Source: a plasmid. Taken from it: DNA of 52,774 nt. Below, in pieces: positions 1 to 52,774 of this stretch. The stretch's first letter is position 1; the number at the start of each line of letters is the position of its first letter. Both the position numbers and the translations under genes were made by a program. The stretch lies in sequence record NZ_CP088248.1. One strand, given 5' to 3'. The notes beneath the pieces were generated by a model. That model ran no database searches. It worked only from the letters and a program-made list of their open reading frames with translations, and had not been told where the DNA came from.

Positions 1-200
1 ATCTTTTTGTGATCGACGCTCGTGAACCACTCACGCCAGAGATAGCCCCATTGGCCGTACCAAGTGACGGCGCCAACGAGAGCCAAGCCGCCCAGCGCAA
101 CAGCTGCAAAGGTCACGAGCAGGATCGGCTCATGATAGGGGATAGCTTCGAGCGTCAGGCGCCCGAAGACAAGCTGCTGGAGATCGATGTTCGAGAACAT
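1..200 (-). CDS. cyoB: Cytochrome bo3 ubiquinol oxidase subunit I, N-terminal 66 codons (ATG at 200..198). The frame continues across the window junction into 52774..50971.
   Basis: Reverse-strand translation gives [66 protein letters not shown](I). This aligns with the E. coli CyoB N-terminus. The stop of cyoA lies 24 nt upstream. Confidence 0.85.
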
Positions 201-223
201 GGGAATGCCCGTATCGGTCGATG

Positions 224-1402
224 CTAGCGGCCCTGGGGGGGCGCAGTGTTGAGCTGGGCCGGCGCAGGTGTCCGGTCGGCGCCCGGCAGGGCGTTGCCCT
301 GGCCCTGATCAGGCTCGGTTTTTGGCTTGTTGACCCCGTCCCGGCTCAGGGTCTGGTCGCGGGGATCCATGCCTTCCGGCTGGACTGAGCCTTGCGGCGG
401 ACGACCCGAGGCCGGGAAGGTGGCGCCCGAAGGCTCGGTGCCGGACTCCAGGCGACGGTTGTCGTAGTCGAGCCGCTTGCGGTTCTCTTCGCTGGCTCGC
501 CCCCCACCTCCAGCTCGGTCGATCTGGTGCATCTCGGTGACGCACATCAGGCCGGGTTCGGGGCACATGCCAAGGATGACGTCATAGATGCCGGCCTGCA
601 CGCTGCTGAAGAACCGAACCGGATCAGCCTCGCTCGGCTTCTCAAGCGCCAGGTAAGCCTCGCGGTTGAGGTTTGTGCCGGACGCTTTGGCCTTCGCAAC
701 CCACTCGTCGAAGCCTGCGGCCGGCAGGCTGCGGAAGCCGAAGTTCATCCGGGAGAACCCGGGTCCGCTGTAGTGAGCCGATAGCCCCCGAAACGTTCCT
801 TCCTTGTTCATGACAGCGTGGAGCTTCGTCTCCATGCCGGGCATGGCGTAGATCATACCGGCGAGCGCTGGGACGTAGAACGTGTTCCAGACAGAGGACG
901 ACGTGATCCTGAACGTGATCGGCCGGTCGACCGGCGCCGCCATCTCGTTGACGCTTGCAACCCCGTACTCGGGGTAGATGAACAGCCATTTCCAATCGAG
1001 GGCGACGACCTGCACCTCGAGTGGCTTGGTGTCGGCCGGGATCGGGCGGTTAGGGCCGAGGCGCGACAACGGCTTGAATGGGTCGAGTGTGTGTGTGGAG
1101 ATCCAGGTGATCGCGCCGAGTGCCATGATGATCAACAGCGGCACCGTCCAGATCACAACCTCGAGCTGGGTCGAGTGGTGCCAATCCGGATCGTAGGTCG
1201 CGTCTGGGTTCGAGGCACGATACCGGCGCGCGAAGATGAAGGTGAGCGCAATCACCGGCACAATCACCAGCAGCATGAGCGCGGTGGACACGATAATGAG
1301 GTTGCGCTGCTGTGTTGCGATGTCCCCGGACGGGTTCATGACAACCATGTTGCACCCGGCCAGCAGACTAGAGGCGGCTAGCACGGCTAGGCTTCGCAGC
1401 AT
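224..1402 (-). CDS. cyoA: Cytochrome bo3 ubiquinol oxidase subunit II (lipoprotein signal peptide, CyoA/COX2-like fold, C-terminal low-complexity tail)
   Basis: Strong similarity to E. coli CyoA throughout ([18 protein letters not shown] signal peptide with lipobox, [34 protein letters not shown]). The start was moved to the ATG at 1402, immediately before the signal peptide. The 1540 start would add 46 non-conserved residues. Confidence 0.9.
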
Positions 1403-1543
1403 GCTGCTCACCCGCGGGCCTTGCGAGCGGCGGAGAGCAAAGGAAGGGCGAGACGGTGAGACCATGGGGCTTGCTTCATCATCTCTCGCCGGCGCGCGGG
1501 CTGGACGCGGCCGGATGGCGCGAGGGTGACCAGGGAGCACGGT

Positions 1544-2887
1544 TCAGACCTGCCGGATTTCTGAGCGCGAGCTGCCAAGCGCCAGCAAGGTCGTGATTGC
1601 ACCGGACAGCAGGTACAGACCCACGCAGGCGAGGCCGTAGCGGGCTGACAGAAACAGCACGATCAGGGGAGCGAACCCCGCTCCCAGCAGCCAAGCCAGG
1701 TCGCTTGTGAGAGCCGCTCCGGTGTAGCGGAAGCGCTGTTCAAGCCGGGACGTGACCGCTCCGGAGGACTGGCCGTAGGACAGCCCAAGCAGGGCAAAAC
1801 CCGCGTTGACATAGATCGTCTGCCCAATCGCGTTCTCTTCGACGAGCAGCGGCGCGATGATGCTGCCGAGAGCGAAGACCGCGATCAGGCCTGCCGTGAT
1901 CATCAGCAGCATGCGGCGACCGATCTGATCGGCGATGAGCCCAGAGGCCATGACCGCACCCGCGCAGATAAAGGCGCCCGAGCACTGGATCATGAGAAAC
2001 TCGCCCGGCGAGCGCTCTGTGAAGAGGTTGATCCAGCTGATCGGGAACACGGTCACGAGATGAAACAGGGCAAAGCTCGCCAGCGGTATCAGCGCGCCGA
2101 TGAGAAGCTCTCGTGAGTGGTTGCGGATCAGCGGGATGATGGGCGAAGGCTCAAGCCGCCGCTGCTCAAGGAGGCGGGAAAACTCGTCCGTCGCAACGAG
2201 CCGCAGGCGTGAGAACAAAGCCACAACATTGACGGCAAAGGCGCAGAAGAAGGGGTAACGCCAGCCCCAATCCAAAAACTCGCCATCTGTCAGGTTGAGC
2301 AGGAGGTATGAGAACATGACGGCGGCCACGATGAAGCCGAACGGCGCACCGAGCTGAGGGATAGCTGCATAGAAGCCGCGTCGTTCGATGGGCGCATTCA
2401 GCGCTAGCAGCGAGGCAAGGCCGTCCCAGGCGCCACCCAGCGCCAGGCCCTGCCCAATCCGCAGTCCAGCCAAGAGGTAAAGCGACCAAACCCCGATCTG
2501 CGCGTAGCCGGGCAGGAAGGAGATCGCCATCGTAGAAAAGCCGAGCAGAAACAGCGCCGTGGTTAGCTTTACGCCCCGGCCATGCCGACGATCGATGGCT
2601 GTGAAGACGGCTGTTCCAAGGGGCCTCGCGATGAAGGCGAGCGCGAAAATCGCGAAGGAATAAAGCGTTGCGGTCAGGGGCTCCAAAAAAGGCAGGAACA
2701 CCTTTGGAAACACCACCACAGATGCAATCGCGAACACAAAGAAATCGAAATACTCTGCCGTCCGGCCGATAATCACGCCGATCGCAATCTCACTAGGTGC
2801 GACCTTGTGATCAGTGTTCGCTAAACGGGCGTCGCGCTCCAGCGGATTGGAGGATGGATAAGGCCCTTCAACGTGATCGATCGCCAT
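1544..2887 (-). CDS. MFS transporter, metabolite:H+ symporter (MHS) family (ProP/KgtP-like)
   Basis: Twelve TM-like hydrophobic segments. The EYFDFFVFAIASVVVFPKVF motif aligns with ProP EWFDFGVYGFVAYALGKVF. Start placed at the internal ATG (MAIDHVEG...), which gives a ProP-like N-terminal length. Confidence 0.8.
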   Translation of the reverse strand: MAIDHVEGPYPSSNPLERDARLANTDHKVAPSEIAIGVIIGRTAEYFDFFVFAIASVVVFPKVFLPFLEPLTATLYSFAIFALAFIARPLGTAVFTAIDRRHGRGVKLTTALFLLGFSTMAISFLPGYAQIGVWSLYLLAGLRIGQGLALGGAWDGLASLLALNAPIERRGFYAAIPQLGAPFGFIVAAVMFSYLLLNLTDGEFLDWGWRYPFFCAFAVNVVALFSRLRLVATDEFSRLLEQRRLEPSPIIPLIRNHSRELLIGALIPLASFALFHLVTVFPISWINLFTERSPGEFLMIQCSGAFICAGAVMASGLIADQIGRRMLLMITAGLIAVFALGSIIAPLLVEENAIGQTIYVNAGFALLGLSYGQSSGAVTSRLEQRFRYTGAALTSDLAWLLGAGFAPLIVLFLSARYGLACVGLYLLSGAITTLLALGSSRSEIRQV

Positions 2888-3307: not shown

Positions 3308-4063
3308 CTACCCGCCTTCGCTGATCGCCAGAAGACCCGGTCGATCCTGGAGAGTGACCGATCTTGCCGTCTTGTAGTCGATGAGCCCCTTCCGGCGCAG
3401 CCTTGTGAAGACACGGCTCACGGTCTCGATGGTCAGACCAAGATAGTCGGCGATGTCAGAGCGCGTCATCGGCAGCTCGAGATCCTTGCTAGAGCCCCCC
3501 AGCCGTTGAGATGCTTCCGCTCGCGCCAGGAGGAAGCGGGCAACCCGCTCGTCCGCCGTCAGACGGCCAAGCAGAGTCATGTGCTCCTGACCAGCTGCAA
3601 CCTCGTCAGATGCTACAGCGAGGAGACGACGCTCGAGCTTTGGATAGGTCTCCAGGAGGACGCGGAACTTGCCGCGCTCAAACCGGCACAGCCGAACGTT
3701 CGTAAGGGCTTCGGCACTGCAGGGCACGGCATCAGGGCGGCCAAAACCGATGAAATCGCCCACCGTCAGGAACCCAATGACCGCGCGACGACCATCAGCC
3801 AGGAGCTTGAACAGTTTCACCGACCCCGAGATGATGTTGAACAGGTACTCCGGTGAAGCACCCTCGTTCCGGAAGACCTCACCTGGCGCGAGCTCGACCA
3901 CCGTGGTTGCCCGGGCCAGTTCGCTGAGCTGATCCTCCTCGATTGCGTTGCAGATGCTGACTGCACGAGCTTCGCAGAGCCCACAGCGCTCAACGCCACA
4001 CCCCTGACCGCGCTCGATGCGAGCGCACGGTTCGGCTTTTGTGCCAGGAGGAACGGTGGTCAC
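3308..4063 (-). CDS. FNR-type (Crp/Fnr family) transcriptional regulator with N-terminal Cys cluster (probable O2-sensing [4Fe-4S] type)
   Basis: cNMP-binding-like domain plus C-terminal HTH (SRVFTRLRRKGLI). N-terminal CARIERGQGCGVERCGLC cysteine cluster as in FNR/FnrN. The GTG at 4063, preceded by AGGAA, gives 251 aa. The long-frame start at 4246 would add 61 non-conserved residues. Confidence 0.75.
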   Translation of the reverse strand: MTTVPPGTKAEPCARIERGQGCGVERCGLCEARAVSICNAIEEDQLSELARATTVVELAPGEVFRNEGASPEYLFNIISGSVKLFKLLADGRRAVIGFLTVGDFIGFGRPDAVPCSAEALTNVRLCRFERGKFRVLLETYPKLERRLLAVASDEVAAGQEHMTLLGRLTADERVARFLLARAEASQRLGGSSKDLELPMTRSDIADYLGLTIETVSRVFTRLRRKGLIDYKTARSVTLQDRPGLLAISEGG

Positions 4064-4504
4064 AGTCGTGTTCCTGATGAGACGGTGAAGGCTGAAGGGC
4101 GACCCATAGCCTTCCTGGATGTTTCCAAGCCCAACGGTAATCTGCGTTTCTGCGTTCAAGAAGGCTCGGTTTATGCACGCAACCGCCGAGCTAGCGTGCC
4201 TGCCTCCAGCAAGACGTGTGCGCCTCGGTTGAGAGCGAGCGGTCAAGAAGCCGCTGAGTCTACGCCGTCAGTCGGTTCGGGCCGGAAAACCGCCTTGTGA
4301 TCAGCCTTGCACACATTAGGCTGCGCAAGGATCGCCTGCAGCCTGTCGCTTTCATGCACGGGGAGGCAAGTACAATTCTAACCAGCGTGCCCTTCCGCAA
4401 ATGCCAGGCTCGGGTGCCGCGCGCGAGATTTCGCCACGAGACATTCCGTTCTGACTTGGGTAAGTAGGGCGGAGTCAGACATCGAGATACCAGGGGTAAT
4501 CATC

Positions 4505-4954
4505 TTGGAGAGCAATACGATCGGCGCCCTCTCTCGTGAGGATCTGCTCGAGCGCGCCGCCGAAATCGTCACCTCATATGTCGCCAACAATCGAGTTCCC
4601 GCAGCCGAGTTGCCCGGACTCATCCCAGCAGTCTATGCCAAACTTGCATCTCTAAGCATCACAGGCTCGGCATCTGCAGCCGAAGCCGATGTTAAGCAGG
4701 CGACCGCGGCGCAAATCCGCAAGTCGATCACGCCAGATGCCTTGATCTCGTTCATCGATGGCAAGCCCTACAAGACGCTGAAGCGGCACCTTGGAGTGCA
4801 TGGCCTCGATCCTTTCTCCTACCGTGAGCGCTATGGCCTTCCCTCGGACTACCCGATGACTGCTCCTGGTTATTCAACCATGCGATCTGCGCTGGCGAAA
4901 GAACTGGGTCTAGGTCGTACCGGCGGACGAGCGGAGAGGCAGGCAGCTGAGTAG
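4505..4954 (+). CDS. Ros/MucR family transcriptional regulator, with the zinc-coordinating cysteines replaced (Ser/Asp)
   Basis: Clear Ros/MucR similarity (ELPGLIPAVYAKL, KSLKRHL-like KTLKRHLGVHGL, DYPMTAPGY, LAKELGLG). In place of the CxxC of the C2H2 site it reads ISFIDGK. Confidence 0.85.
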   Translation: MESNTIGALSREDLLERAAEIVTSYVANNRVPAAELPGLIPAVYAKLASLSITGSASAAEADVKQATAAQIRKSITPDALISFIDGKPYKTLKRHLGVHGLDPFSYRERYGLPSDYPMTAPGYSTMRSALAKELGLGRTGGRAERQAAE

Positions 4955-5022: not shown

Positions 5023-5841
5023 TCAGAAGGTACGAGGTTGGGCTTCTGAAACGTGAGGGTGGGGACCAATGGCACGCAGCTGTTGCGAAGTGCTACGATC
5101 CCGTTCAGAGGCCATCTCGTCCAGTTGCAGGTAATTTGCCTTGAACTCAGCGATTTCCGCAAGGCGTGGCAAGTCAAGGATTGTAAAATGTCTACCTTTA
5201 CGCTCAATAAGGCCCGCACGCCTGAGTGTACCTAAGGAGCGATTGACGTGTACCGGTGTTATGCCGGCAGTGTCCGCCAGATCAACCTGCGTAATTGGCA
5301 GCAGGAACGTCTGGTCCTTGGTCAGCCCGACCGCGCGCAATCGCACGTACAGCTCGCAGAAAAGATGGGCGAGGCGCTCTACGGCTGAGCGGCAGCCGAT
5401 GTTTACAAGCCACGCACGTAAAGTCGCCTCATTGACGCGCGCTGCTGTTTGTAGCGCCTGCATCACGGCGGGCCGCCGCTGGAGATCTGCGACTATCCAA
5501 GGAGCAACCCACACGGCCCGGCATGTGGAAAGAGTGCCAATAGCATAATCCATTCTGTCGAGCCGCGACGTGGCGAGGTCACAGACATCGCCCGGTAAAA
5601 GGTAGGCGAGGATCTGACGCGTTCCATTCTCCCGCAACTTGTATTGACAGGCAAAGCCTTGTCCAATCACAAGCATGCCTTGTGGCCGGTCGCCCTCGCA
5701 GATGAGATCTTTACCTGCCGGGAAGAACTGTCCTGCGGTCTCGATCGCGGTGAGCGCAACCCTATCAGTTACCTGTAAAGGCGCAAAAGCCTCAAGCTTG
5801 CGTACGAGCGGCCCGTGCGCTCCCTGTCGCAGCAACTGCAT
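5023..5841 (-). CDS. Crp/Fnr family transcriptional regulator (no Cys cluster; FixK/Crp-like)
   Basis: cNMP-binding-like domain plus HTH (ADTAGITPVHVNRSLGTLRRAGLI). Start placed at the internal ATG 5841 (MQLLRQ...), which is preceded by GGGAGG at -7. The long-frame start at 6078 has no RBS. Confidence 0.75.
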   Translation of the reverse strand: MQLLRQGAHGPLVRKLEAFAPLQVTDRVALTAIETAGQFFPAGKDLICEGDRPQGMLVIGQGFACQYKLRENGTRQILAYLLPGDVCDLATSRLDRMDYAIGTLSTCRAVWVAPWIVADLQRRPAVMQALQTAARVNEATLRAWLVNIGCRSAVERLAHLFCELYVRLRAVGLTKDQTFLLPITQVDLADTAGITPVHVNRSLGTLRRAGLIERKGRHFTILDLPRLAEIAEFKANYLQLDEMASERDRSTSQQLRAIGPHPHVSEAQPRTF

Positions 5842-6123
5842 TTCGCGTCCTCCCTGCCCTTTAGGGACCGCGACCACGCGTACCAATTGAGCAGCACTAA
5901 CATAGGCGTAGGTTGTGACCTTCAAGCCGCTACGCCGCTTATCAACCTTTAAATTACAAGCGACGGAATCTGTTAGGGTAAGCCTTTCCTCCTCGGTTCG
6001 CGATGGAAGGCAATTCGAGCAGTTCCTTAGCCGTAGTGGAACAGTGCACAATCGAATCAGATAGGTTAACGACAACATTCGAAGTAAATGGCAGCGTGGC
6101 TATCTGGTTGTATGAGGCTGCCT

Positions 6124-7384: not shown

Positions 7385-7394
7385 GTCTGGGTAT

Positions 7395-9046
7395 CGGCGT
7401 GGAAAAAGGGGTCTGGCGCACTCCTGATGCAGCCGGCGTCACCCAACGCCGATCAGCCGCGCTTCGAGCAGATCGAGCTTGGCCCGACCGAACATCTGTC
7501 GCTTCACGAGCTTGAGGCGAGTGATCTGCCCCTCGGTCTGGCCATTCGACCAGGGCTCGGCCAGCGCCGCGGCGACAGCCTTTCTGTCTCGCGACAGGCC
7601 GTTCGCGAAGGACGCGAGGAGGCTGCGAGCCGCCGTGTCGATCCAGGTGTCGAGGTCGTGTGTTCTCCGCTCGCGGATCATGGCCTGGAAGCCGGCCAGG
7701 AGAGAGCGCGCCTCGTCGAGCGCCGGTACCGCTGCCTCGATCGTCGTCACCGTCACGGCCTCGGCCTTGCTCAGGCCATCCCGCCCGGTCGTCATCAGTC
7801 GCGCGAGGAGGCGTGCAGAGGGTACCTTGCCGGGAGCACCCGCGGGGGACTGCTCATGGCGCCGACGGCGGGTCGCCCACTCTCCAACGACGCGGAGGCT
7901 GCCGGTGAACCCGCCGGCGCGCAGGCGTCGCCAGAGTTCGGCACCGTTGCGGCAGCCGGCCGCCCACTCGTCGTCGAGCCGGGGCAGGTAGGACTCCAGG
8001 CTGCTCTGGCGCGCCCGGAACACGTCACCGGTCAGGCCGCGCAACACGTGGCGCACGAGCCTGCGGCTGTGGCCGGTCGTGCAGACGATCTGCCGGATCG
8101 GCATGCCCTGTCGCGACAGCGTCAGTATCGCCTCGGCAGTCGCCGTGCGCCGACGGTAGCCCTCGTATTGCAGGCGCTCGGCGCAGGTCAGCCGATTGGG
8201 GTCGATCGTGGCGGCGCCCACCGCGACTCGGATGGCGTTCATCGACTTGCGCACGGCATCGAGGAAGGCGGCGCTGGCGTTCTCCATCAGATGCCAGCGG
8301 TCGGCGACCTGGATCGTCGTGGGCAACGCCCGCGCCGCGGCCTCGCCGTAGCCGCCGCCGCGGTCACGGGCGAGGACGGCGATCTCGGGATGGGCGGTGA
8401 GCCATGCCTCGACGGTGCCGCTCTCGCGATCCGGCAGGAGGGCGACGACGCGCCGCCGCTCCAGGTCGCAGATCAGCGTGCCGTAGCGTTGCCCACGGCG
8501 GAAGGCCCAATCGTCGATGCCGATCACGGTCAGGGTCTCGGCCGGCCTCTGGGCGCGGCGGCGCACGGTTCGCAGCATCGTGTCCCGGCTCGCCGGCACC
8601 ATCAGTCGGCGGGCGAAGCTCTCCGCCGGCCTGCCACCGAGTGCGAGGCCGAGATGATGGACGATGGTCTCCAGCCGTCCTGTTCGTCGGGCGTAGGCGG
8701 CGGCGAGGTCCGGTTCGAGCCGCTCGGCGAAGACCTTCGTCCGGCATTCCGTTCCGACGCACCGGAAGCGGCGGACGCTGATCGTGATGACGACGCGTCG
8801 GCCAGCGACCGGCAGATCCGATAGGGTGCGGATGTACCGGCTGTGCACACGGGACGAGATCCCGTCACACCTCGGACATCGGGCCGACGCGGCGGTCGGC
8901 CGAGCGGTGATGGTCAGACCCGCCCCCACCTCGATGTGATCGACGACAAGGCCGGGCGGAACGACAGAACCGAGATGAAGGCTGCGGGGCATGGCCGGAT
9001 CTCCGACGGCTGAAGCCGAGATCCATCAACCCGCCTGCACCGAAAG
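7395..9046. mobile_element. ISL3-family insertion sequence (boundaries approximate)
   Basis: Single transposase ORF with short non-coding flanks. The right flank abuts IS21 copy 1. Exact IRs not resolved. Confidence 0.6.
7439..8992 (-). CDS. ISL3 family transposase
   Basis: N-terminal zinc finger CPRC...C, DDE region, and the C-terminal motif NGQTEGQITRLKLVKRQMFGRAKLDLLEARL typical of ISL3 transposases. Confidence 0.85.
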   Translation of the reverse strand: MPRSLHLGSVVPPGLVVDHIEVGAGLTITARPTAASARCPRCDGISSRVHSRYIRTLSDLPVAGRRVVITISVRRFRCVGTECRTKVFAERLEPDLAAAYARRTGRLETIVHHLGLALGGRPAESFARRLMVPASRDTMLRTVRRRAQRPAETLTVIGIDDWAFRRGQRYGTLICDLERRRVVALLPDRESGTVEAWLTAHPEIAVLARDRGGGYGEAAARALPTTIQVADRWHLMENASAAFLDAVRKSMNAIRVAVGAATIDPNRLTCAERLQYEGYRRRTATAEAILTLSRQGMPIRQIVCTTGHSRRLVRHVLRGLTGDVFRARQSSLESYLPRLDDEWAAGCRNGAELWRRLRAGGFTGSLRVVGEWATRRRRHEQSPAGAPGKVPSARLLARLMTTGRDGLSKAEAVTVTTIEAAVPALDEARSLLAGFQAMIRERRTHDLDTWIDTAARSLLASFANGLSRDRKAVAAALAEPWSNGQTEGQITRLKLVKRQMFGRAKLDLLEARLIGVG

Positions 9047-44033: not shown

Positions 44034-45719
44034 TCAGGCCGCGCGGACCGTCGTCAGAAACCGGTTCACTTCGGTTGAGAGGTGCTCAGACTGTCGCGAC
44101 AATTCGGAGGCTGCGCCAAGCACTTGGCTCGCCGCTGCACCTGTCTCCTCGGAAGCCTGAGCTACGCCAGCGATGTTAGCTGTGACCTCGCCCGTGCCGG
44201 TTGCCGCCTGGGCCACGTTGCGCACGATCTCCTGCGTGGCTGCGCCCTGCTCCTCCACCGCCGCTGCGATGCTGGTCGCAACCCCGCTGATTTCCTTGAT
44301 GCGTTCGGCGATGCCAGCAATGGCTGCTACGGCCTGACCGGTCGACCCTTGGATCCGCGCAATGTGACCGGAAATTTCGTCGGTGGCTTTAGCGGTCTGG
44401 CTGGCAAGCTCCTTTACCTCGGTTGCAACGACTGCGAAGCCACGGCCAGCTTCGCCAGCACGGGCTGCCTCGATCGTAGCGTTCAGGGCGAGCAGGTTAG
44501 TCTGACCGGCGATTGTCGAGATCATTGTCACCACGTCGCCGATCTGGGCCACGGCACCGCTCAGTTCTTGTACGAGAGCTGCGCTGTGATCAGCCTCGCT
44601 TACCGCGACCTGCGCAAGGCTGGCCGACCCGTCAACTTGCCGGCCGATTTCATGCACCGATGAGCTAAGCTCCTCGGCGGCCGCTGCCACTGTGCTGACA
44701 TTGCTTGCTGCTTCCTCGGCCGCGGTCGCGACAGTGATGGACTGGTTGGCGGTCTCGGTTGCGGTGCCAGCCATGCTCTGAGCAGTCGCCTGCAACTCGG
44801 TCGCGGCCGCAGTGACTGTCCCGATGATGCCGCCTACGGCACGCTCGAAATCATCAGCCATCTGGCGCATCCCAAGCTTGCGCTGCTCCTCGGCTGCGAG
44901 CCGGGCCTGGGCTGTTTCCTGCTCCAGCTCACGGGTGCGGATCAGGTTGTCCTTGAACACCTGAACGGCCGCAGCCATCGCACCGATTTCATCCTGCCTG
45001 TCGGTGCTCGGCACGGTCGTTGCCGCGTCACCGGCAGCAAGTCTGCCCATGGCAGCCGTCATACGCTCGATTGGACGTGCGACTCCAAACAGGCTGAACA
45101 GGATGGCACAAAGACCGATCACCAATGAGATCGCTGTCATCACGTAGGCTGTGAGGATGGCCTCTGCCGCACTCTCAGCAGCGGCAGTTCCGCTTGCATT
45201 TGCCCCACGCTTATTGAGCTCAACGCCTTTTGTGAGGGCTTGCATGGCAGCTCGGTTGAGGCTTCCCATTTCCTCGCTGGTAAGCAGGGCAAGCGCTTCC
45301 GCCTTGTTCCCCTGCTTCATGAGCGTGCGAACATGTTCCTCCTGCTCGATATAGCGAAGCCAGGTCGAAGAAAAAGCATCATAGAGCGCCTTCTCCTCGG
45401 CCGAGCTGATCAGCGGCTCATAGCGGCGCTTCAACGCCTCGAGGTTGTGATTAGCCTCAATTAAACCGGCTTCATTCTTGGAAAATCCTTCCACCGTGTT
45501 GGACGCGACAACGAAGCGGTAGAGCTTAACTCTTACATCGCGCGTTGAGGTATTTATCTCGTTGATTATGCTTACTGAAGGGAGCCAATTTTTTGTTACG
45601 GCTGATGAGCTTTGCTCTACAGATGTGATTTTGCTGATGCTGGCTGCACCTTGGCCGACGGCGGCCAGGGCCAGAAGGCCAATGGAGCCAATTAGAACTG
45701 TTTTGAGGGTCAGACGCAT
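44034..45719 (-). CDS. Methyl-accepting chemotaxis protein
   Basis: TM1, periplasmic 4HB-like region, TM2, HAMP, and an MA domain with [31 protein letters not shown]. Confidence 0.9.
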
Positions 45720-46350: not shown

Positions 46351-46935
46351 TCACTGAAGCGGTACGCGAGCGCGAACGCGGATCCCGTCCGGTTCGAAGG
46401 CAACCTCGACCTCAGCCTTTGTCTGTGCGGCCAGGACCTTGTTCAGGAGGCGGTGTCCGAACCCCTCCCGGGTAGGATGCCCGACCGGAGGGCCGTCATG
46501 CTCGTCCCAGTTCCATCGCAGGCACTGTCCGCTGGAGCCGTCCTCAATCCACCAAGTGACCTCGACCCGACCTTTAGGATCGGCGAGAGCGCCGTGTTGC
46601 AGGGCGTTGGTCGTCAACTCGTGCAGAGCCATGCTTACCGGCACGGCAAGGTTGGACGGCAGCATGACCCTGGGACCTTCCAAGGTAATCCGCCCATGAT
46701 CGTTGTACGGATCGAGTTCCGACCGCAGCAATCCCTCAAACGAAGCCGCTTGTGAGAGATCCTCCGTGATCAGCGCGTGAGTCCGCGCCAGCGAGCTGAT
46801 CCGAGCGGTCAATGCACGAGTGAACTCTGAGATCGAGAGGGAAGAGCGAACGGTGGCGTTCATCACCGCCTGCACGGTCGCGAGCGTATTTTTGACGCGA
46901 TGGTGCAACTCGCGCACCATGAGCTTCTGGCGCTC
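46351..46935 (-). pseudogene. C-terminal (HisKA_2 + HWE_HK) fragment of a PAS-HWE histidine kinase gene split by IS21 copy 3
   Basis: ...ERQKLMVRELHHRVKNTLATV...HELTTNALQHGAL. The reading frame runs without a stop to the IS end at 46935. Confidence 0.8.
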
Positions 46936-47052
46936 TGTCAGCGGGCGTTGAATACTCCCTGATTGTGGGCATCGAAAATTCCCTGGTCGGTGCCCTGGCC
47001 CGTAGGGTCGCGACGCCCCGCGCCCTCTCGGGCTTTTCCATCCTCAGCCACC

Positions 47053-48354
47053 ATGCCTGCCGATACCGATCGGCTGGGAGCGACGAGGATGGTTCTGCTG
47101 GGAGAACTCGTCATGATCTTGGACCTGCACCGACAGGGCCTGTCCGTCTCCGCCATCGCCCGCCGGACCGGCCGCGATCCGAAGACGATCCGCAAGTACA
47201 TCGAGCGCGGCCTCGAGCCGCCGGCCTACGGCCCGCGTCAGCCCGGCCGCCCGAGCAAGCTCGCGCCCTATCTCGATTATCTGCGCGAGCGGATCACCGC
47301 CTTCCCCGACCTGAGTGCCGTGCGCCTGACCCGCGAGTTGCGCGAGCGCGGCTACACCGGTGCCTACACCGCGGTGAAGCGGTTCGCCGCCGCGATCCGG
47401 CCGCCCGAGGCCAAGCCCTACGAGGTCCGCTTCGAGACCCCGGCCGGCCAGCAGGCGCAGGTCGACTTCGCCCGCTTCCTCGTCACCTTCACGGATGCGC
47501 CGGACACGACCTGCATCGTCTGGCTGTTCTCGCTGGTGCTCGGCCATTCCCGGCACATCGAGGCGCGCTTCGTCCTGCATCAGGACCTGCAAACGCTGCT
47601 GCGCTGTCACATGCAGGCCTTCACCGCGATCGGCGGCGTGCCGATCGAGATCCTCTACGATCGCATGAAGACGGCGGTCACCGGCGAGGATGCGGACGGC
47701 CACATCGTCTACAACCGATCCCTGCTGGCACTCGCCCAGCACTACGGATTCCTGCCGCGCGCCTGCCGCCCGTACCGGGCCAAGACCAAGGGGAAGGTCG
47801 AGCGACCGTTCTCCTACATCCGCCAGGACTTCTTCCTCGCACGTTCCTTCCGCGACCTCGACGACCTCAACCGCCAGCTTCGGAGCTGGCTCGATACCGT
47901 CGCCAACGTCCGCTTGCACGGCACCACGCAGCGGATCGTCTCGGAAGCCTTCGCCGCCGAGCGGCCCGAGTTGCAGCCCTTGCCGGCTCTGCCCTTCGAC
48001 GCTCTGCTCACGCTGGAGCGGCGCGTCAGCCACGATGGCCTCGTCTCGATCGGTGGCAACTATTACAGCGTACCGGATCGGACCCGGCGCGTCGTCGAGG
48101 TGCATCAGTTGCCCGACACGATCCGCATCCTCGATGGTGGCCGGCTCGTCGCGAGCCATCCGATCCTGGAGGGACGACGGCAGTACCGCATCGACCCCGA
48201 CCATCGGCAAGGCACGGCCGCTCGGGCCATGCGCCGCGGCCATCCCGACGGTCTGCCGATCGGCCGCCATGGCGATCACGTCGCCCGGCGCTCGCTGGCT
48301 GTCTACCAGGCAGTCGGCGAACGGCTCGCCGGCGGGATCGGAGGCCAGCGATGA
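47053..48354 (+). CDS. istA: IS21 family transposase IstA
   Basis: HTH (ILDLHRQGLSVSAIARRTGRDPKTIRKYI), DDE core. Confidence 0.9.
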   Translation: MPADTDRLGATRMVLLGELVMILDLHRQGLSVSAIARRTGRDPKTIRKYIERGLEPPAYGPRQPGRPSKLAPYLDYLRERITAFPDLSAVRLTRELRERGYTGAYTAVKRFAAAIRPPEAKPYEVRFETPAGQQAQVDFARFLVTFTDAPDTTCIVWLFSLVLGHSRHIEARFVLHQDLQTLLRCHMQAFTAIGGVPIEILYDRMKTAVTGEDADGHIVYNRSLLALAQHYGFLPRACRPYRAKTKGKVERPFSYIRQDFFLARSFRDLDDLNRQLRSWLDTVANVRLHGTTQRIVSEAFAAERPELQPLPALPFDALLTLERRVSHDGLVSIGGNYYSVPDRTRRVVEVHQLPDTIRILDGGRLVASHPILEGRRQYRIDPDHRQGTAARAMRRGHPDGLPIGRHGDHVARRSLAVYQAVGERLAGGIGGQR

Positions 48355-49217
48355 GCCGCGCCGCCCCCTGTGTCGCCACGACCCTCGACAGCATCAAGCG
48401 CAGCTTGGTCGGCCTGCGCATGCCGCGCGCCCTGGAGGTGCTCGACGCGACGGTCCGGCGCATCGAGCAGGGCGAGATCGACGGCTTGGCCGCCCTCGAC
48501 GTGATCCTGACCGAGGAACTGACGCTGCGCGAGAACCGCCGCGTGAAGACCGCCCTGCTGGTCGCGCGCCTGACCACGATCAAGACGCTGTCCGGGTTCG
48601 ACTTTGCCTTCCAGCCCTCGCTCGACCGCGAGCGCGTCCTGGCGCTGGCGGAACTGACCTTCATCGACCGGGCCGAGGTCGTCCATCTGCTCGGACCACC
48701 CGGCACCGGCAAGAGCCATCTGGCGATCGCGCTCGCCGTCGAGGCGGTCAAGGCCGGGCGCAGCGTCGTGTTCTCGACGCTGGCCGACCTCGTGACCTCG
48801 CTGGCCAAGGCCGAGCGCGACGGCTCCCTGCGCGAGCGCATCCGCTATCTCTGCCGGGCCTCGCTGCTGGTCGTGGACGAGATCGGCTACCTCCCCGTCG
48901 TCCCCGGTGGCGGCAACCTGTTCTTCCAACTCGTCAACGCGCGCTACGAGCGCGGGGCGATGATCCTGACTTCGAACCGCGGCTTCGCCGAGTGGGGCGA
49001 AGTGTTCGGTGATCCGGTCGTGGCGACAGCCCTGCTCGACCGACTCCTCCACCATGCCGTGGTGATCCAGATCGAGGGGGCGAGCTACCGCCTGCGCCAG
49101 CACGCCGACCTCGTCCCCGAGCACGTCCGCTCCAAGGCCCTGATCGTTCCGCCGCCCGCACCCAGGCGTCGCGGTCGTCCACCCGGAAAGGCTGCCTCCG
49201 ATCACACGGCCGGCTGA
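48351..49217 (+). CDS. istB: IS21 family helper ATPase IstB
   Basis: Walker A GPPGTGKSHLAIALA, DEIGYLPV. ATGA overlap with istA. Confidence 0.9.
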   Translation: MSRAAPCVATTLDSIKRSLVGLRMPRALEVLDATVRRIEQGEIDGLAALDVILTEELTLRENRRVKTALLVARLTTIKTLSGFDFAFQPSLDRERVLALAELTFIDRAEVVHLLGPPGTGKSHLAIALAVEAVKAGRSVVFSTLADLVTSLAKAERDGSLRERIRYLCRASLLVVDEIGYLPVVPGGGNLFFQLVNARYERGAMILTSNRGFAEWGEVFGDPVVATALLDRLLHHAVVIQIEGASYRLRQHADLVPEHVRSKALIVPPPAPRRRGRPPGKAASDHTAG

Positions 49218-49294
49218 TCACCGATCCGCACCGAACCCGCCGGCCAGGGAATTTTGAAAGCCCACAATTGCGGAGACTTCGGTGCCCGTTGACA

Positions 49295-49725
49295 CGCTCC
49301 TCGTAAGCATGACGCTCTGTTACGTCACGCTGCGCCGAGACCCAGTGCGTGATGGAGCCGTTCTTCTCACGCACTGGCGTGATGAGCCACTCTACCACGT
49401 AGGTTGATCCGTCCTTGCGGTAGTTGATGGTCTCGCCTTGGAAGGGGTTACCAGCCCCAAGAGCCATGCGCATCCGGTGCAGGACCCCACCGTCGGTCTC
49501 CGGCCCCTGCAGCAGCCGCGGTGATCGCCCGAGGACCTCGTGCGCTTCGTAGCCGGTCATGCGGGTGAAGGCCGAATTGGTGTACTCGATGCGTGGTCCG
49601 GGCTCATCGAGATCGGCCGAGGTGATGAGGATGGCTTCCCCGGCCGCTTCGACGGCAGCAAGAAGCACATCCAGATCGGGACGAACCTGCGCCGCTCCGT
49701 GATCCTCGCGCAAGTCCTCCTCCAT
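49295..49725 (-). pseudogene. N-terminal PAS-domain fragment of the same histidine kinase gene (other side of IS21 copy 3)
   Basis: ILITSADLDEPGPRIEYTNSAFTRMTGYEAHEVLGRSPRLLQG...INYRKDGSTYVVEWLITPVREKNGSITHWVSAQRDVTERHAYEER is a PAS fold ending exactly at the TSD. Confidence 0.8.
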
Positions 49726-49948: not shown

Positions 49949-50344
49949 TCATGGCTTGTGCAGAGCCTCGTTGGGCGACATGGGCATCATGTTCTGATCC
50001 ATGTGATACATCACCCATATCGATCCAACCAAGGTAATCAGCACAAGCGTCAGCGTGAAAACGAGGGCGAGAAAGGTCCATCCGCCCTCGGATTTCATGT
50101 TTAAGTGCAAGAAATAGATCATGTGGACGAAAATCTGCACGACGGCAAAGCCCATGATGACGATATCGGTCTTAAGCTTGCTGTCGAGAACATCGCCCAT
50201 CACGAGCCAGAACGGTATTGCCGTGAGGATGACTGAGAGGATGAACCCCGTCATGTAGCCCGACCGGGTGCCATGAGCAGGGCCGTGGCCGGTCCCATGC
50301 ATATGTGGACCAGTGCCGTGTACAGGGTGAGCCGGAGCACTCAT
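49949..50344 (-). CDS. cyoD: Cytochrome bo3 ubiquinol oxidase subunit IV
   Basis: Three TM helices. Similarity to CyoD (GFILSVILTAIPFWLV). ATGA overlap with the cyoC stop. His/Gly-rich N-terminus. Confidence 0.8.
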   Translation of the reverse strand: MSAPAHPVHGTGPHMHGTGHGPAHGTRSGYMTGFILSVILTAIPFWLVMGDVLDSKLKTDIVIMGFAVVQIFVHMIYFLHLNMKSEGGWTFLALVFTLTLVLITLVGSIWVMYHMDQNMMPMSPNEALHKP

Positions 50345-50967
50345 CGCGTCGCTCCCATCAGGTACACAAAGGTGAAGACGCCGATCCACACCACGTCGAG
50401 GAAATGCCAGAACATCGAGAGGCATAGGAGGCGACGCTGGTTGTCAGCGATCAGCCCGTGCTGCCGCACCTGGAACATCAGCGTCACGAGCCAGATGATC
50501 CCGAATGTCACGTGGAGCCCGTGCGTCCCGACCAGGAGGAAGAACGAAGAGAGAAAGGCGCTCCGCTGGGGCGTGGCGCCCTCATGGATCAGGTGCGCGA
50601 ACTCATAGAACTCGATGGCGAGGAACCCAGCTCCGAGCACGCCTGTCGCGGCGAGCCAGCGCAGGACCGCGTCCACCTGCTCCTCCTCCATCTTCAGCAT
50701 GGCAAAGCCATAGGTGATGGAGGACAGGAGCAGGAGGCTGGTGTTGAGAGCAACGAGCTTGAGGTCGAACAGCTCGGCGCCGGATGGGCCTGCCGCGTAG
50801 TTCCGGCCGAGCACGCCGTAGCAGGCGAAGAGCACCGCAAAAATGAGGCAGTCGCTCATCAGGTAGAGCCAGAAGCCCAGGAGCGTGCCCCCGTCACCGT
50901 GGGCATGCTCCTCCTGCTCGTAGAAGACCGGAGCCGTAGCGCCGGGTGGGGCGGTCACTTCATGCAT
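50341..50967 (-). CDS. cyoC: Cytochrome bo3 ubiquinol oxidase subunit III
   Basis: Near-collinear with E. coli CyoC (FGFWLYLMSDCLIFAVLFA, GTHGLHVTFGIIWL, SMFWHFLDVVWIGVFT). Confidence 0.9.
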   Translation of the reverse strand: MHEVTAPPGATAPVFYEQEEHAHGDGGTLLGFWLYLMSDCLIFAVLFACYGVLGRNYAAGPSGAELFDLKLVALNTSLLLLSSITYGFAMLKMEEEQVDAVLRWLAATGVLGAGFLAIEFYEFAHLIHEGATPQRSAFLSSFFLLVGTHGLHVTFGIIWLVTLMFQVRQHGLIADNQRRLLCLSMFWHFLDVVWIGVFTFVYLMGATR

Positions 50968-50970
50968 GGC

Positions 50971-52774
50971 TCAGACCCGTCCCACCAGTTGCGCCGCTCT
51001 CTGGGCTTCGAGCCGGTTCACTTCCGCGGCCGGGATATAGAAGCTCGTGTGGTAGTTGAACGTGTGCCTGATCGAGACCGCAATCAGGGCAATGAGCGAC
51101 AGGGCGGCGAGCCACCACACGTACCAGACCAAGGCAAACCCAAGCACAGTGCTCAGAGCGGCCAGTGTCATGCCCATCGCCGTGTTGCAGGGCATGTGAA
51201 TGGGTCTGAAGCCTCCTGCTGGCCGCTCATGGCCGCGCTTCTTCATGTCCCACCAGGCGTCGAGATCGTGCACCACGGGTGTGAACGCGAAGTTGTAGGG
51301 GGGTGGGGGTGAGGAGGTGGACCACTCAAGCGTCCGTCCACCCCAGGGATCACCGGTAAGGTCACGCAGCTGCTCGCGTCGCAGGATGCTCACGAGAAGC
51401 TGCACGACAAAGGCCAGGATGCCAGCCATGATGATGAAGGCGCCGAACGCCGCAACCATCAGGTAGGGCTGCACCGACGGATCGTCGAAATGCTGGGTCC
51501 GACGCGTCTCGCCCATTAGACCGAGGGCATAGATCGGCGTGAACACGACCCAGAAGCCAACCAGCCAGCACCAGAAGCTGACCTTTCCCCAGAAGGGGTC
51601 GAGACGGAAGCCGAAGGCTTTCGGGAACCAGTACTGCACGCCGGCGAGCAGCCCGAACACGACGCCGCCGATGATGACGTTGTGGAAATGCGCAACCAGG
51701 AACAGGCTGTTGTGGAGGACAAAGTCGGCCGGCGGCACGGCAAGCAGCACGCCGGTCAGGCCACCCAGCACGAAGGTCGGGATGAAACCCATGACCCAAA
51801 TGAAGGGGCCCTCGAAGCGGATCTTGCCCCGGTACATGGTGAACAGCCAGTTGAACACCTTGGCCCCGGTCGGGATCGAGATGATCATGGTCGTGATGCC
51901 GAAGAAGGCGTTGACGTTGGCGCCGGCACCCATCGTGAAGAAGTGGTGGAGCCAGGTCAGCCATGACACGAGCGCGATGACAGCGGTGGCGTAGACCATC
52001 GACGTATAGCCAAACAGCCGCTTTCCGCAGAACGTCGAGACGATCTCCGAGTAGATGCCGAAGGCAGGTAGGACGAGTACGTAAACCTCCGGATGCCCCC
52101 AGATCCAGATGAGGTTCATGTACAGCATCGAGTTGCCGCCGTAATCGTTCGTGAAGAAGTGTGTCCCCACGTAACGATCACAGGCCAGAAGAGCCAACGT
52201 GGCGGTCAGAACCGGAAAAATCGTGACGATGATTGCATTGCTAGCGAGCGTGGTCCAGCAGAACACCGGCAGCTTCATCATAGTCATGCCGGGCGCGCGC
52301 ATCTTCACGATGGTCGCGATCAAATTGATCGCAGACAGCGTCGTGCCGACGCCGGCGATCTGTAGGCTCCAGATGTAGTAATCGACACCGACGCCCGGGC
52401 TGTAGGCTGCTCCGGAGAGCGGCGGGTAGGCAAGCCAACCCGTACGGGCAAACTCGCCCACAAACAGCGACAGCATCGTCAGGATGGCGCCGCCTGCCGT
52501 CATCCAGAAGCTGAAGTTGTTGAGAAATGGAAAGGCCACATCGCGCGCTCCGATCTGGAGCGGCATGATGTAATTCATCACCCCGGTCACGAATGGCATC
52601 GCCATGAAGAAGATCATGATCGTGCCGTGGGCGGTGAAGATCTGATCGTAGTGATGCGGTGGCAGGTAACCCTGTGCCTCTCCGACCGAGAGAGCCTTTT
52701 GTGTGACCATCATGATTGCGTCGGCAAAGCCGCGCAGCAGCATTACGATGGCGAGGATGATGTACATGATGCCG
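50971..52774 (-). CDS. cyoB: Cytochrome bo3 ubiquinol oxidase subunit I, C-terminal 601 codons. Continues from 200..1 across the window junction.
   Basis: Heme-copper oxidase subunit I with CyoB-specific stretches ([29 protein letters not shown]). The reading frame enters from the right edge with ...GIMYII. Confidence 0.9.

Follow-up and report, generated by a model that had tools for sequence, protein, structure and literature searches.

The window, as we call the whole stretch of 52,774 nucleotides analysed here, is a complete single copy of a 52.8-kb circular, mobilizable Methylorubrum plasmid whose oxidase cargo comprises a precisely delimited unit of five genes, an MFS transporter gene plus cyoABCD. 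We put at roughly 85% the probability that it represents one full turn of a circular Methylorubrum plasmid of about 53 kb, bearing a second bo3 oxidase and linearised arbitrarily inside cyoB. Indeed, the minus-strand cyoB reading frame leaves position 1 and resumes at position 52774 without a break, the Ile67 codon being split over the join (A and T at positions 2 and 1, then C as the complement of 52774). The joined ORF (200..1 plus 52774..50971, minus strand) runs for 667 aa without interruption and gives a single match to NCBIfam TIGR02843 that spans the entire profile (positions 1-646 of 646) with a score of 1102.7 bits (cutoff 1020.35). Its alignment to E. coli CyoB (PDB 1FFT/8F68) shows 64.6% identity overall and is gap-free around the junction. 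The original prediction, made from the letters alone, had proposed that the termini are contiguous within cyoB and fit E. coli CyoB residue for residue there; both points hold, and the continuity of CyoB across the join is far beyond chance.

The same join is crossed without a break in six independent public contigs at 98.2-100% identity, each with an intact 667-aa cyoB call. Because the window contains neither a terminal (prefix/suffix) overlap nor an internal repeat of at least 100 bp, it amounts to exactly one unit. Related assemblies overlap themselves: BSUX01000003.1 (M. aminovorans, 76,074 bp) does so with a period of 52,794 bp, positions 3995-19493 recurring at 56789-72286 (15.5 kb, 0 mismatches), and JBHTER010000009.1 (M. 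suomiense, 66,890 bp) with a period of about 45.5 kb. Metagenome contigs of unit length (51,774, 54,194 and 54,256 bp) have other breakpoints and are colinear with the window. Closure of exactly this molecule is supported by the seamless join together with the contigs of its relatives, and the predicted complete circular replicon is borne out by these contigs and by a replication, partition and mobilization gene set (Table 1).

Table 1. Features of the plasmid, in window coordinates
Feature	Position	Strand	Evidence or remark
cyoB 5′ part, codons 1-66 plus two bases of codon 67	1..200	-	continues at 52774
cyoA, subunit II, 392 aa	224..1402	-	TIGR01433 339.6 bits, cutoff 266.2
MFS transporter, 447 aa, metabolite/H+ symporter-like	1544..2887	-	TIGR00883 262.7 bits, below cutoff
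Predicted FNR/FixK-type box TTGATCTGAGTCAA	3156..3169	.	one mismatch to TTGAT-N4-ATCAA
Crp/Fnr-family regulator, FnrL/FnrN type	3308..4159	-	FnrL 6.6e-47, FixK 3.8e-40; both scores under equivalog cutoffs
Ros/MucR-family regulator	4505..4954	+	PF05443 on identical gene in relatives L001-L006
Second Crp-family regulator	5023..5925	-	cNMP_binding + HTH_Crp_2
IS21-family element	7388..11568	+	istA 9163-10668, istB 10626-11399; 8-bp target duplication GTCACGTC
ISL3-family element	7410..9058	-	transposase 7439-8992; 8-bp target duplication GAAAAAGG
Serine recombinase/resolvase	13147..13749	+	PF00239 1.3e-41, HTH_7
parA, partition ATPase	27750..28412	+	named ParA family partition ATPase [Methylorubrum]
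ParG-like small ribbon-helix-helix ParA partner, 101 aa	28409..28714	+	called in all relatives
repA, replication initiator protein A, 410 aa	28763..29995	+	PF10134 205.9 bits
oriV, six clustered iterons CCGTAC[A/T]TC...	30026..30315	+	four iterons at 21-22 bp spacing
MobA/MobL-family relaxase, 416 aa	31723..32973	+	PF03389 213 bits; gene calls
Type IV coupling protein, VirD4/TraG-like, 535 aa	32915..34522	-	PF02534 221.7 bits
ISMdi7, IS21 family	36492..39059	+	99.9-100% to M. extorquens DM4, Methylobacterium sp. XJLW
GAF-PAS-PAS-HWE histidine kinase, 5′-truncated	39060..40936	+	869 aa in relatives
Response regulator	41005..41385	+	gene within 41005..42087 block
DUF892 ferritin-like protein	41542..42087	+	gene within 41005..42087 block
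CHASE3-GGDEF diguanylate cyclase	42302..43480	-	gene within 42302..45719 block
Methyl-accepting chemotaxis protein	44034..45719	-	gene within 42302..45719 block
PAS-HWE histidine kinase 3′ fragment	46351..46935	-	kinase gene that follows cyoD
ISMex13, IS21 family	46936..49294	+	99.8-100% to M. extorquens AM1
PAS-HWE histidine kinase 5′ fragment	49295..49725	-	same gene as 46351..46935 fragment
cyoD, subunit IV, 131 aa; module end	49949..50344	-	TIGR02847 104.2 bits, cutoff 81.45
cyoC, subunit III, 208 aa	50341..50967	-	TIGR02842 266.2 bits, cutoff 223.75
cyoB 3′ part, rest of 667-aa bo3 quinol oxidase subunit I	50971..52774	-	TIGR02843

The plasmid belongs to the iteron-type RepA/ParA replicons; its RepA is of the RPA family, and an identical RepA protein occurs in Methylorubrum sp. 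B1-46 as well as in other Methylorubrum. A seventh iteron lies outside the oriV cluster, at 30759; altogether the repeats give 8 matches against 0.52 expected, a count reached in 0 of 100 shuffles. The origin patch has a GC content of 41-45% and is flanked by two perfect DnaA boxes (TGTGGATAA, at 30075 and 30305), the only ones that the window contains. The ParA protein is identical on 21 contigs read, and its ParG-like neighbour is borderline against PF09274 ParG (21.2 bits, cutoff 21.4). The parts originally listed, namely repA with oriV, parA with a small ParG-like gene, a relaxase, a coupling protein and four IS elements, are all in place; mating-pore genes are absent from the replicon. 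RepA would bind its own iteron origin, with the flanking DnaA boxes, to drive replication, ParA and the ParG-like protein would effect partition, and the serine recombinase probably acts in multimer resolution. The relaxase and VirD4-type coupling protein would make mobilisation possible and self-transfer not.

All four Cyo subunits exceed their NCBIfam equivalog cutoffs, and the ligand, channel and quinol-site positions checked in CyoB are conserved in 19 of 19 cases. CyoA, called at 392 aa in independent contigs too, has a lipobox (LAGC) and a long Pro/Gly-rich C-terminal tail, and a CuA motif (C.E.C) sought in it was absent. For CyoC, 22 of the contigs read (40 index blocks) encode an identical protein. 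A full cyoABCD operon without cyoE, plus an MFS/MHS-type transporter, had been predicted, and all of these are present; the transporter is not separate cargo, however, but belongs to the conserved MFS-cyoABCD unit, a 447-aa MFS gene also preceding cyoA on the chromosomes of Enterovirga, Microvirga and Methylorubrum. The unit is predicted to encode a proton-pumping cytochrome bo3 ubiquinol oxidase, in which subunit I would oxidise quinol at its R81/D85/H108/Q111 site and pass the electrons via heme b to the O2-reducing heme o3-CuB centre. The enzyme of E. coli cyoABCDE (1FFT, 6WTI, 7CUB, 8F68) is of the same family, and relative to its CyoB the heme/CuB ligands, cross-linked Tyr, D-/K-channel and quinol-site residues are conserved, but the E. 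coli operon is chromosomal and includes cyoE (heme O synthase), and the plasmid CyoA is extended by about 80 aa at its C-terminus.

The lack of cyoE is real and yet no peculiarity, as alphaproteobacterial cyo loci are normally without cyoE and end in SURF1 instead. The gene actually missing is SURF1: it had no match in the window and does not follow cyoD, although it does so in every chromosomal relative examined, and its absence is specific to the plasmid copy. Because the plasmid has neither SURF1 nor heme O synthase, assembly of an active enzyme depends on host functions, and the plasmid oxidase would rely on the chromosome for both. Heme O is needed as a precursor by the hosts' aa3 oxidase.

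The plasmid is found in Methylorubrum aminovorans, M. thiocyanatum, M. suomiense and Methylorubrum sp. B1-46, at sizes of 45-54 kb. Its backbone relatives include the M. populi P-1M plasmid pMPPM03 (NZ_AP014812.1, 42.6 kb) as well as plasmids from M. radiotolerans JCM 2831 and M. phyllosphaerae, which have the parA-small ORF-repA block at 80-84% DNA identity, with an Abi-family gene and a resolvase in common; these are 36-43 kb, predicted to be mobilizable and without the cyo island, and pMPPM03 instead has a MobF relaxase together with P450, catalase and lactate genes. Plasmid-borne cyoA/cyoB as such are frequent, with approximately 340-350 PLSDB plasmid records including R. etli p42e, but every cyo-bearing plasmid sampled (two samples of 60 PLSDB records each) measured at least 129 kb. 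The view that a terminal oxidase is unusual plasmid cargo is therefore right for small plasmids and wrong in general: cyo is common on huge plasmids and looks rare on one this small. R. etli CFN42 p42e (NC_007765.1, 505 kb) likewise bears cyoABCD, alongside cytochrome c oxidases, and has equivalents on Sinorhizobium pSymB-type, Shinella and Azospirillum megaplasmids; experiments assign the R. etli Cyo a role in adaptation to low O2 (PMC4274787). Like the window, these loci comprise MFS and cyoABCD without cyoE (CyoA about 60%, CyoB 71-74% identical), but their replicons of 130 kb to 2.7 Mb are often chromid-like and keep SURF1 after cyoD, whereas the Methylorubrum plasmid is a mobilizable 45-54 kb vehicle without SURF1, bearing a second copy beside a chromosomal operon.

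By sequence comparison, the nearest relatives of all five genes are the chromosomal MFS-cyoABCD-SURF1 loci of two Methylobacteriaceae, Enterovirga sp. CN4-39 and Microvirga lotononidis (MFS 82-83%, CyoA 69-73%, CyoB 84-87%, CyoC 84-85%, CyoD 80-83%). Plasmid CyoB is 87% identical to that of Enterovirga, 84% to Microvirga and 73-76% to Methylorubrum/Methylobacterium. These loci share gene lengths (447, 667 and 208 aa) and orientation with the window, but sit in a housekeeping chromosomal context, have SURF1 after cyoD and show none of the genes that flank the unit on the plasmid (Fnr/Crp, Ros/MucR, HWE-kinase, MCP and GGDEF). At the DNA level, homology to the Enterovirga locus covers exactly window 2888 to 49946, across the join, and ends at 49946; the unit would have been acquired from an Enterovirga/Microvirga-like chromosome precisely from start codon to stop codon. 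A second cyo operon on the chromosome, which the original prediction proposed to look for, was found without cyoE as MFS-cyoABCD-SURF1 in two plasmid-carrying host assemblies (BSUX01000001.1, 5.88 Mb; JBHTER010000014.1, 5.39 Mb), about 73% identical to the plasmid version. The plasmid cyo is thus a second copy beside the host's own.

The oxidase unit would form the centre of a plasmid island of about 19 kb. The FnrL/FnrN-type regulator has a C-X2-C-X7-C motif plus a central Cys (Cys 88, 91, 99, 176 and 187 in the longest ORF). The TTGATCTGAGTCAA box precedes the MFS start by about 270 bp; such boxes number 2 in the window against 0.66 expected, which 9 of 100 shuffles reach (not significant), so the box, weak alone, is suggestive by position only. 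Oxygen-dependent control of the plasmid cyo is probably exerted by this adjacent sensor together with the surrounding sensor proteins. Several neighbours are altered in this copy. Nested within the IS21 element, 22 bp from the left end of the latter, is the ISL3 element; the IS21 site is empty in relatives L001 and L002, and IS21 occurs without ISL3 in L003, L004 and L006. The ISL3 element (97.4% to a Methylobacterium sp. DM1 plasmid) is specific to this plasmid copy, as is ISMex13, which splits the PAS-HWE kinase after cyoD with a 5-bp target duplication (CGCTC); in L001-L004 and L006 that kinase gene is unbroken and encodes 336 aa. ISMdi7 has no target duplication and stands in for about 7.96 kb found in relatives; among other things, that stretch holds genes for an AAA ATPase and a Crp regulator as well as codons 1-252 of a sensor kinase. 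In this copy, two sensor kinases have been disabled by three additional IS insertions and an IS-linked deletion, and the oxidase genes have been spared.

Could the circularity be an assembly artefact, with the sequence an integrated island or a tandem duplication in a larger replicon? We consider this very improbable. The 170-kb M. aminovorans contig BAAADH010000095.1 does contain the plasmid sequence in full, and an IS3 copy links this to unrelated DNA, but the contig leaves the circle 585 bp inside that copy, mid-copy and not at the IS3 end; the junction looks like a repeat-induced join, and may alternatively be a real IS-mediated cointegrate. The artefact is further opposed by the self-overlap of the other M. 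aminovorans assembly, by the shorter period in a second species, by the unit-length metagenome contigs with their different breakpoints, by the unduplicated window ends, and by the replicon's own RepA, iterons, DnaA boxes and ParA. That the molecule is a chromid-like essential secondary replicon with the host's only bo3 oxidase, an option voiced in the original prediction, is extremely unlikely, even though it encodes a core-type respiratory enzyme and rhizobial chromids commonly carry cyo operons. This reading is unsupported because the same host assemblies have their own complete chromosomal cyo locus and because the plasmid's GC content is 60.5% versus 67-70% in host-derived IS elements. 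The replicon is also small, mobilizable and absent from the PLSDB Methylorubrum records, and cyo is present and expressed in M. extorquens PA1 and AM1, neither of which is among the assemblies found with the plasmid.

It is unlikely, too, that the plasmid cyo is a no longer functional passenger, cut off from SURF1 and heme O synthase in an IS-ridden region. The missing SURF1, the lack of cyoE and the disruption of two neighbouring sensor kinases in this copy would fit such decay, but the window and most relatives have all five genes intact, the catalytic residues are all conserved, and the chromosome could supply SURF1 and heme O synthesis in trans. Moreover, the two plasmid lineages compared differ at 47 synonymous versus 5 non-synonymous positions (pN/pS 0.035), and the oxidase cargo is therefore under strong purifying selection. 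The oxidase genes are intact and evolutionarily conserved.

Taken together, the window is a real, ordinary complete plasmid whose cargo is moderately unusual for its size. In its Methylorubrum hosts, the plasmid enzyme would constitute a second, xenologous quinol-oxidase branch beside the chromosomal cyo, and may provide a fitness benefit.

The two ends of the plasmid record NZ_CP088248.1 meet inside the minus-strand cyoB gene, as the original prediction had claimed. Across the join, from window position 52774 to position 1, the minus-strand frame stays open for 703 codons and encloses a 667-aa CyoB that starts at window position 200 and stops at 50971. The codon divided by the join was rebuilt just as had been described: positions 2 and 1 supply A and T, position 52774 supplies C, and the resulting ATC encodes Ile67. 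Read across the join, CyoB matches the NCBIfam profile TIGR02843 in one stretch (profile 1-646 of 646; 1102.7 bits, cutoff 1020.35), and its alignment to the solved E. coli subunit I (64.6% identity) has no gap around the join. Because neither a prefix/suffix overlap nor an internal repeat of at least 100 bp was found in the window, the record holds exactly one unit, whose ends meet with no base lost or gained.

Plasmid relatives were gathered by exact-sequence look-up of CyoC, ParA and the coupling protein in public contigs. Six independent contigs cross the join at 98.2-100% identity, and in these cyoB is an intact, internal gene call of 667 aa. Two relatives exceed one unit in length and repeat themselves, a pattern typical of circular long-read contigs that were left untrimmed: in BSUX01000003.1 (M. 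aminovorans; 76,074 bp) positions 3995-19493 equal 56789-72286, that is, 15.5 kb with 0 mismatches and a period of 52,794 bp, and the M. suomiense plasmid contig JBHTER010000009.1 (66,890 bp) repeats with a period of ~45.5 kb. Similarly, metagenome contigs of 51,774, 54,194 and 54,256 bp are of unit length and colinear with the window, with their break points elsewhere. The seamless join, the join-spanning contigs and the self-overlap in two relatives all speak for a closed circular extrachromosomal topology. One further contig, BAAADH010000095.1 of M. aminovorans (170 kb; L002 17357-20627), joins plasmid sequence to other DNA and was considered as proof of chromosomal integration. It tracks the circular assembly up to 585 bp into an IS3 copy and then departs into DUF6538 and HemY_N genes. 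Because the departure falls inside the IS3 copy, we rejected the contig as such proof and treated it as a repeat-induced join, probably a misjoin; it may instead represent a real IS3-mediated cointegrate. On the evidence of assembled sequence, the circular plasmid of the original prediction is confirmed as a complete, correctly closed record with an arbitrary start inside cyoB, and annotation of the linear record will consequently split or miss that gene.

The full cyoABCD set that had been claimed is present. All four subunits score above their NCBIfam equivalog cutoffs: in addition to CyoB, CyoA (TIGR01433, 339.6 vs 266.2), CyoC (TIGR02842, 266.2 vs 223.75) and CyoD (TIGR02847, 104.2 vs 81.45). 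CyoB keeps 19 of the 19 residues checked, among them the equivalents of E. coli H106, H284, H333, H334, H419 and H421 (heme b, heme o3 and CuB ligands), of the cross-linked tyrosine Y288, and of E286, D135, K362 and T359 in the D- and K-channels, along with the propionate arginines. The high-affinity quinol site R71, D75, H98 and Q101 of E. coli corresponds to R81, D85, H108 and Q111 in the plasmid protein. CyoA has the lipobox LAGC and lacks the C-x-E-x-C (CuA) motif, as expected of a quinol oxidase. The module is thus predicted to encode an A-type bo3 quinol oxidase, heme O and heme A insertion being indistinguishable at the level of sequence. The CyoA C-terminus (window 224-460, minus strand) forms a low-complexity Pro/Gly/Gln-rich tail of ~80 aa, which E. 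coli CyoA lacks; CyoA of Enterovirga and Microvirga is similarly long (404-417 aa).

The longest ORF of the MFS transporter gene is 468 aa, and an exact look-up with that form matched nothing, since the real start lies later and gives 447 aa. In BSUX01000003.1, from the NBRC assembly of M. aminovorans, cyoB (L001 7995-9997) is annotated as two proteins of 576 and 117 aa. Single-base indels occur in the transporter gene, cyoA and cyoB of the M. suomiense long-read contig. Sequencing error, not pseudogene formation, probably explains the split call and the indels, since the genes are intact in other assemblies of the same species.

The module appears foreign to its hosts. The best identity to CyoB among the matches listed in species-representative genomes was 74%, with Methylorubrum zatmanii at 73%; the plasmid copy was not among these matches, which therefore gave no host names. 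In a large protein collection the closest named relatives were Enterovirga sp. CN4-39 (87%) and Microvirga lotononidis (84%), members of sister genera in the same family, with Methylobacterium proper at 74-76%. Both of these relatives carry, in ordinary chromosomal surroundings, a locus arranged MFS (447 aa)-cyoA-cyoB (667)-cyoC (208)-cyoD-SURF1, and the five plasmid proteins are 69-87% identical to the Enterovirga/Microvirga set vs 62-73% to the chromosomal set of Methylorubrum. At the DNA level, homology to the Enterovirga locus extends from window 2888 through the join to 49946, with sharp edges at the transporter start codon and the cyoD stop. These edges indicate that the transporter belongs to a conserved five-gene unit, which was captured without SURF1. 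The transporter had originally been listed as cargo beside the operon; it is indeed there, but as a part of the shared MFS-cyoABCD unit rather than a separate item. No SURF1 gene was found in the window, and the predicted lack of cyoE was upheld, with no prenyltransferase match in a Pfam/NCBIfam scan of the ORFs, including the long non-IS ORFs. In fact, cyoE is absent from every alphaproteobacterial cyo locus examined, and SURF1 follows cyoD in each; cyoE therefore marks the enterobacterial operon layout, not the enzyme.

A second cyo operon on the chromosome, which the original prediction had proposed looking for, was located by homology search in the same assemblies that bear the plasmid: MFS-cyoABCD-SURF1 lies on BSUX01000001.1 (M. 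aminovorans, 5.88 Mb) and on JBHTER010000014.1 (M. suomiense, 5.39 Mb). On the plasmid, the operon is thus a xenologous second copy. The chromosomal CyoB cluster of M. zatmanii has a single member and is uninformative on hosts. SURF1 is available to the plasmid module in trans from the host chromosome, and so, presumably, is heme O, which such hosts would synthesise for an aa3 oxidase. In M. extorquens PA1, the chromosomal cyoA (Mext_4337) adjoins a transporter gene (PMC8153426), and in M. extorquens AM1 the cyo genes are expressed (PMC6520949).

Comparison of the window with the M. suomiense plasmid lineage gave 47 synonymous vs 5 non-synonymous differences over the five genes (pN/pS 0.035), computed codon by codon against a long-read comparator that has single-base indels in three of the genes. 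RepA and ParA show the same, mostly synonymous pattern. So low a ratio speaks for an operon that is functional and under selection, and against a passenger in decay.

The genes that flank the module suggest how it may be controlled. On its 5′ side lie three regulators (Crp/Fnr, Ros/MucR and a second Crp-family protein), of which the Crp/Fnr regulator has the FnrN/FnrL-type cysteine motif C-X2-C-X7-C plus a central Cys. An FNR-like box, TTGATCTGAGTCAA (one mismatch), lies ~270 bp upstream of the transporter gene, the count of such boxes not being significant. On the 3′ side are genes for two kinases (PAS-HWE and GAF-PAS-HWE), a chemoreceptor, a CHASE3-GGDEF cyclase, a DUF892 protein and a response regulator. 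From these adjoining regulators and sensor genes we infer oxygen-responsive control, which agrees with the finding in R. etli that Cyo aids adaptation to low O2, with maximal expression at 1-2.5% O2 (PMC4274787). The kinase 3′ of cyoD has a LOV-like PAS domain and matches NCBIfam LOV blue-light kinases at 5e-25. We rejected it as a blue-light sensor, because the photoactive motif GxNCRFLQG reads GRSPRLLQG and lacks the cysteine.

The backbone largely bears out what had been predicted of it, namely repA with an oriV, parA-parG, and a relaxase with a coupling protein. Six iterons of the form CCGTAC[A/T]TC... lie within 170 bp directly past the repA stop, four of them at 21-22 bp spacing, and a seventh lies 560 bp beyond the cluster; the motif has 8 matches vs 0.52 expected, a count reached in 0 of 100 shuffles. 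The iterons occupy a patch of 41-45% GC with a perfect DnaA box on either side (30075 and 30305), no other perfect box occurring in the window, and this region is the candidate origin. With its initiator, iterons, AT-rich patch and DnaA boxes, the plasmid would be of the iteron-controlled RepA (RPA) type. ParA is clear, while its ParG-like partner, a 101-aa ribbon-helix-helix protein, is borderline (Pfam ParG, 21.2 vs cutoff 21.4). The motif AAAATCGTAAAT at 27707 and 28173, and variants of it at 28705 and 30847, mark candidate partition sites. No mating-pore (VirB/Tra, T4SS) genes were found among the scanned ORFs or the gene calls of relatives, so that the plasmid, having a relaxase and a coupling protein, is predicted to be mobilizable and not conjugative; no oriT was located. 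The parA-repA block of the window is 80-84% identical to that on small plasmids from M. populi, M. radiotolerans and M. phyllosphaerae; the relative examined in full, pMPPM03 of M. populi, has no cyo genes.

Backbone genes, insertion sequences and interrupted genes of the plasmid (window coordinates unless stated)
Feature	Position	Strand	Remarks
IS21-family element	7388-11568		hosts nested ISL3
ISL3 element	7410-9058		nested 22 bp within end of IS21-family element
Serine recombinase	13147-13749		probable resolution function
parA	27750-28412		partition ATPase
repA	28763-29995		RPA family, PF10134 205.9 bits vs 27; named replication initiator protein A in sources
MobA/MobL relaxase	31723-32973		PF03389 213 bits
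VirD4-type coupling protein (T4CP)	32915-34522
ISMdi7	36492-39059		no target-site duplication; replaces ~7.96 kb of relatives; truncates GAF-PAS-HWE kinase
ISMex13	46936-49294		5-bp duplication; splits PAS-HWE kinase
PAS-HWE kinase fragments	49295-49725 + 46351-46935	-	intact copy in a related plasmid contig (L006 11243-12253)

Insertions of ISL3, ISMex13 and ISMdi7 set this copy of the plasmid apart and have left the oxidase genes unaffected. The segment of relatives that is missing at the ISMdi7 site (L017, a related plasmid contig, 77-8031) encodes a 392-aa AAA ATPase, a Crp-family regulator, a DUF6894 protein and the N-terminus of the kinase, besides several unknown ORFs. Its loss, together with the lack of a duplication, points to an IS-mediated adjacent deletion.

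A low-GC (54%) three-gene cluster at 25088-26966 (plus strand), with an upstream ORF at 24557-25081, encodes two TIR proteins, the first ThsB-like (129 aa) and the second of 158 aa, along with a caspase/CHAT-like protease (331 aa), with PADLOC matches to ThsB (7e-13) and 'caspase' (2e-15); the M. suomiense plasmid lineage lacks this block. An Abi-family ORF at 21666-22340 (plus strand) falls slightly under the Pfam Abi_2 cutoff and matches PADLOC PD-T4-5 (6e-11) and AbiD (3e-6). Other small Methylorubrum/Methylobacterium plasmids have kept it (84-86% DNA identity), and it is the second candidate for a defence gene on the backbone. At 20260-20337 (plus strand) a full-length match to Rfam RF00519 (suhB/MmgR sRNA; 68.8 bits vs gathering score 41) is a plasmid copy of the chromosomal-type alphaproteobacterial 'Makes More Granules Regulator' sRNA. 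The backbone also encodes, at 17590-19051 and 15484-16482 (both plus strand), two DUF2382/YflT-type general-stress proteins and an AraC-family regulator, which with the DUF892 protein add a stress-response flavour beyond the oxidase.

Hosts were named through protein cluster look-ups. Proteins identical to the CyoC, RepA, ParA and VirD4 of the window, together with CyoB proteins from the 90%-identity cluster of the window CyoB, occur under NCBI names in M. aminovorans (several assemblies), M. thiocyanatum (52.9-kb contig), M. suomiense (45.6 kb) and Methylorubrum sp. B1-46. IS elements of the window match ISMex13 and ISMdi7 of M. extorquens AM1 and DM4 at 99.8-100% identity. In the collection, 40-49 index blocks contain identical plasmid proteins, and these include several metagenomes and sequencing runs that are unrelated (ENA KERN20-1 metagenome scaffolds, JGI 3300036443, and Logan ERR3675757, ERR3675785, DRR778183, SRR31513875, SRR33118489 and SRR19279580). 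Among sequenced samples, the plasmid or its Methylorubrum host is widely distributed. Our literature search found no description of the plasmid or of a plasmid-encoded cyoABCD in Methylobacterium/Methylorubrum. A rice-phyllosphere long-read paper that mentions cyoABCD and plasmids was set aside, as it concerns a Saccharibacteria genome.

Whether the replicon is a plasmid or a chromid had been left open in the original prediction, and here the chromid option did not hold. Non-duplicated core genes, which would mark a chromid, are not what the module represents, since the hosts hold a chromosomal MFS-cyoABCD-SURF1. Outside its IS elements the window has 60.5% GC vs 67-70% in host-derived IS elements (99-100% shared with M. 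extorquens), which stand in here for the host chromosome. The replicon is small, mobilizable, lower in GC, absent from the Methylorubrum records in PLSDB and duplicates a chromosomal function; it is therefore a plasmid and not a chromid. The view that a terminal oxidase operon is unusual as plasmid cargo appears to stand for small plasmids and fails for large ones. PLSDB holds CyoB-type genes (60-80% identity) in 353 records and CyoA in 337, mostly from Rhizobium, Sinorhizobium, Paracoccus, Shinella and Azospirillum and including R. etli p42e, whose experimentally studied cyo operon is plasmid-borne as in the window. In two evenly spread samples of 60 PLSDB records each, the smallest replicon with a true cyo gene had 129,754 bp. 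Plasmid-borne cyo is thus well known on megaplasmids and chromids, and appears to be rare in the size class of the window. The plasmid belongs to the known phenomenon of accessory terminal oxidases on secondary replicons, and is distinguished by its small mobilizable vehicle, the precisely excised foreign five-gene unit without SURF1, the chromosomal paralogue alongside and clear purifying selection.

We further propose, with a probability of about 0.4, that a mobilizable plasmid of less than 60 kb spreads a complete, selectively maintained oxidase branch (MFS-cyoABCD) of Enterovirga/Microvirga origin between Methylorubrum species, connected to an O2 sensor of the FnrN type as well as to a set of sensor kinases, a chemoreceptor and a diguanylate cyclase, and functioning solely by way of the heme O synthesis and SURF1 of the recipient chromosome. 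If the proposal is right, this would be a rare case of a respiratory-chain branch acting as accessory cargo of a small plasmid with a niche advantage, for example on leaves or in water systems where conditions are micro-oxic or stressful. Respiratory oxidases are usually assigned to the stable core genome or to chromids. Here a full bo3 unit lies on a small mobilizable plasmid of at least three named Methylorubrum species, alongside a chromosomal paralogue and under strong purifying selection. The plasmid offers a tractable system for asking what a methylotroph gains from a second quinol oxidase, and how far respiratory flexibility reaches by horizontal transfer.
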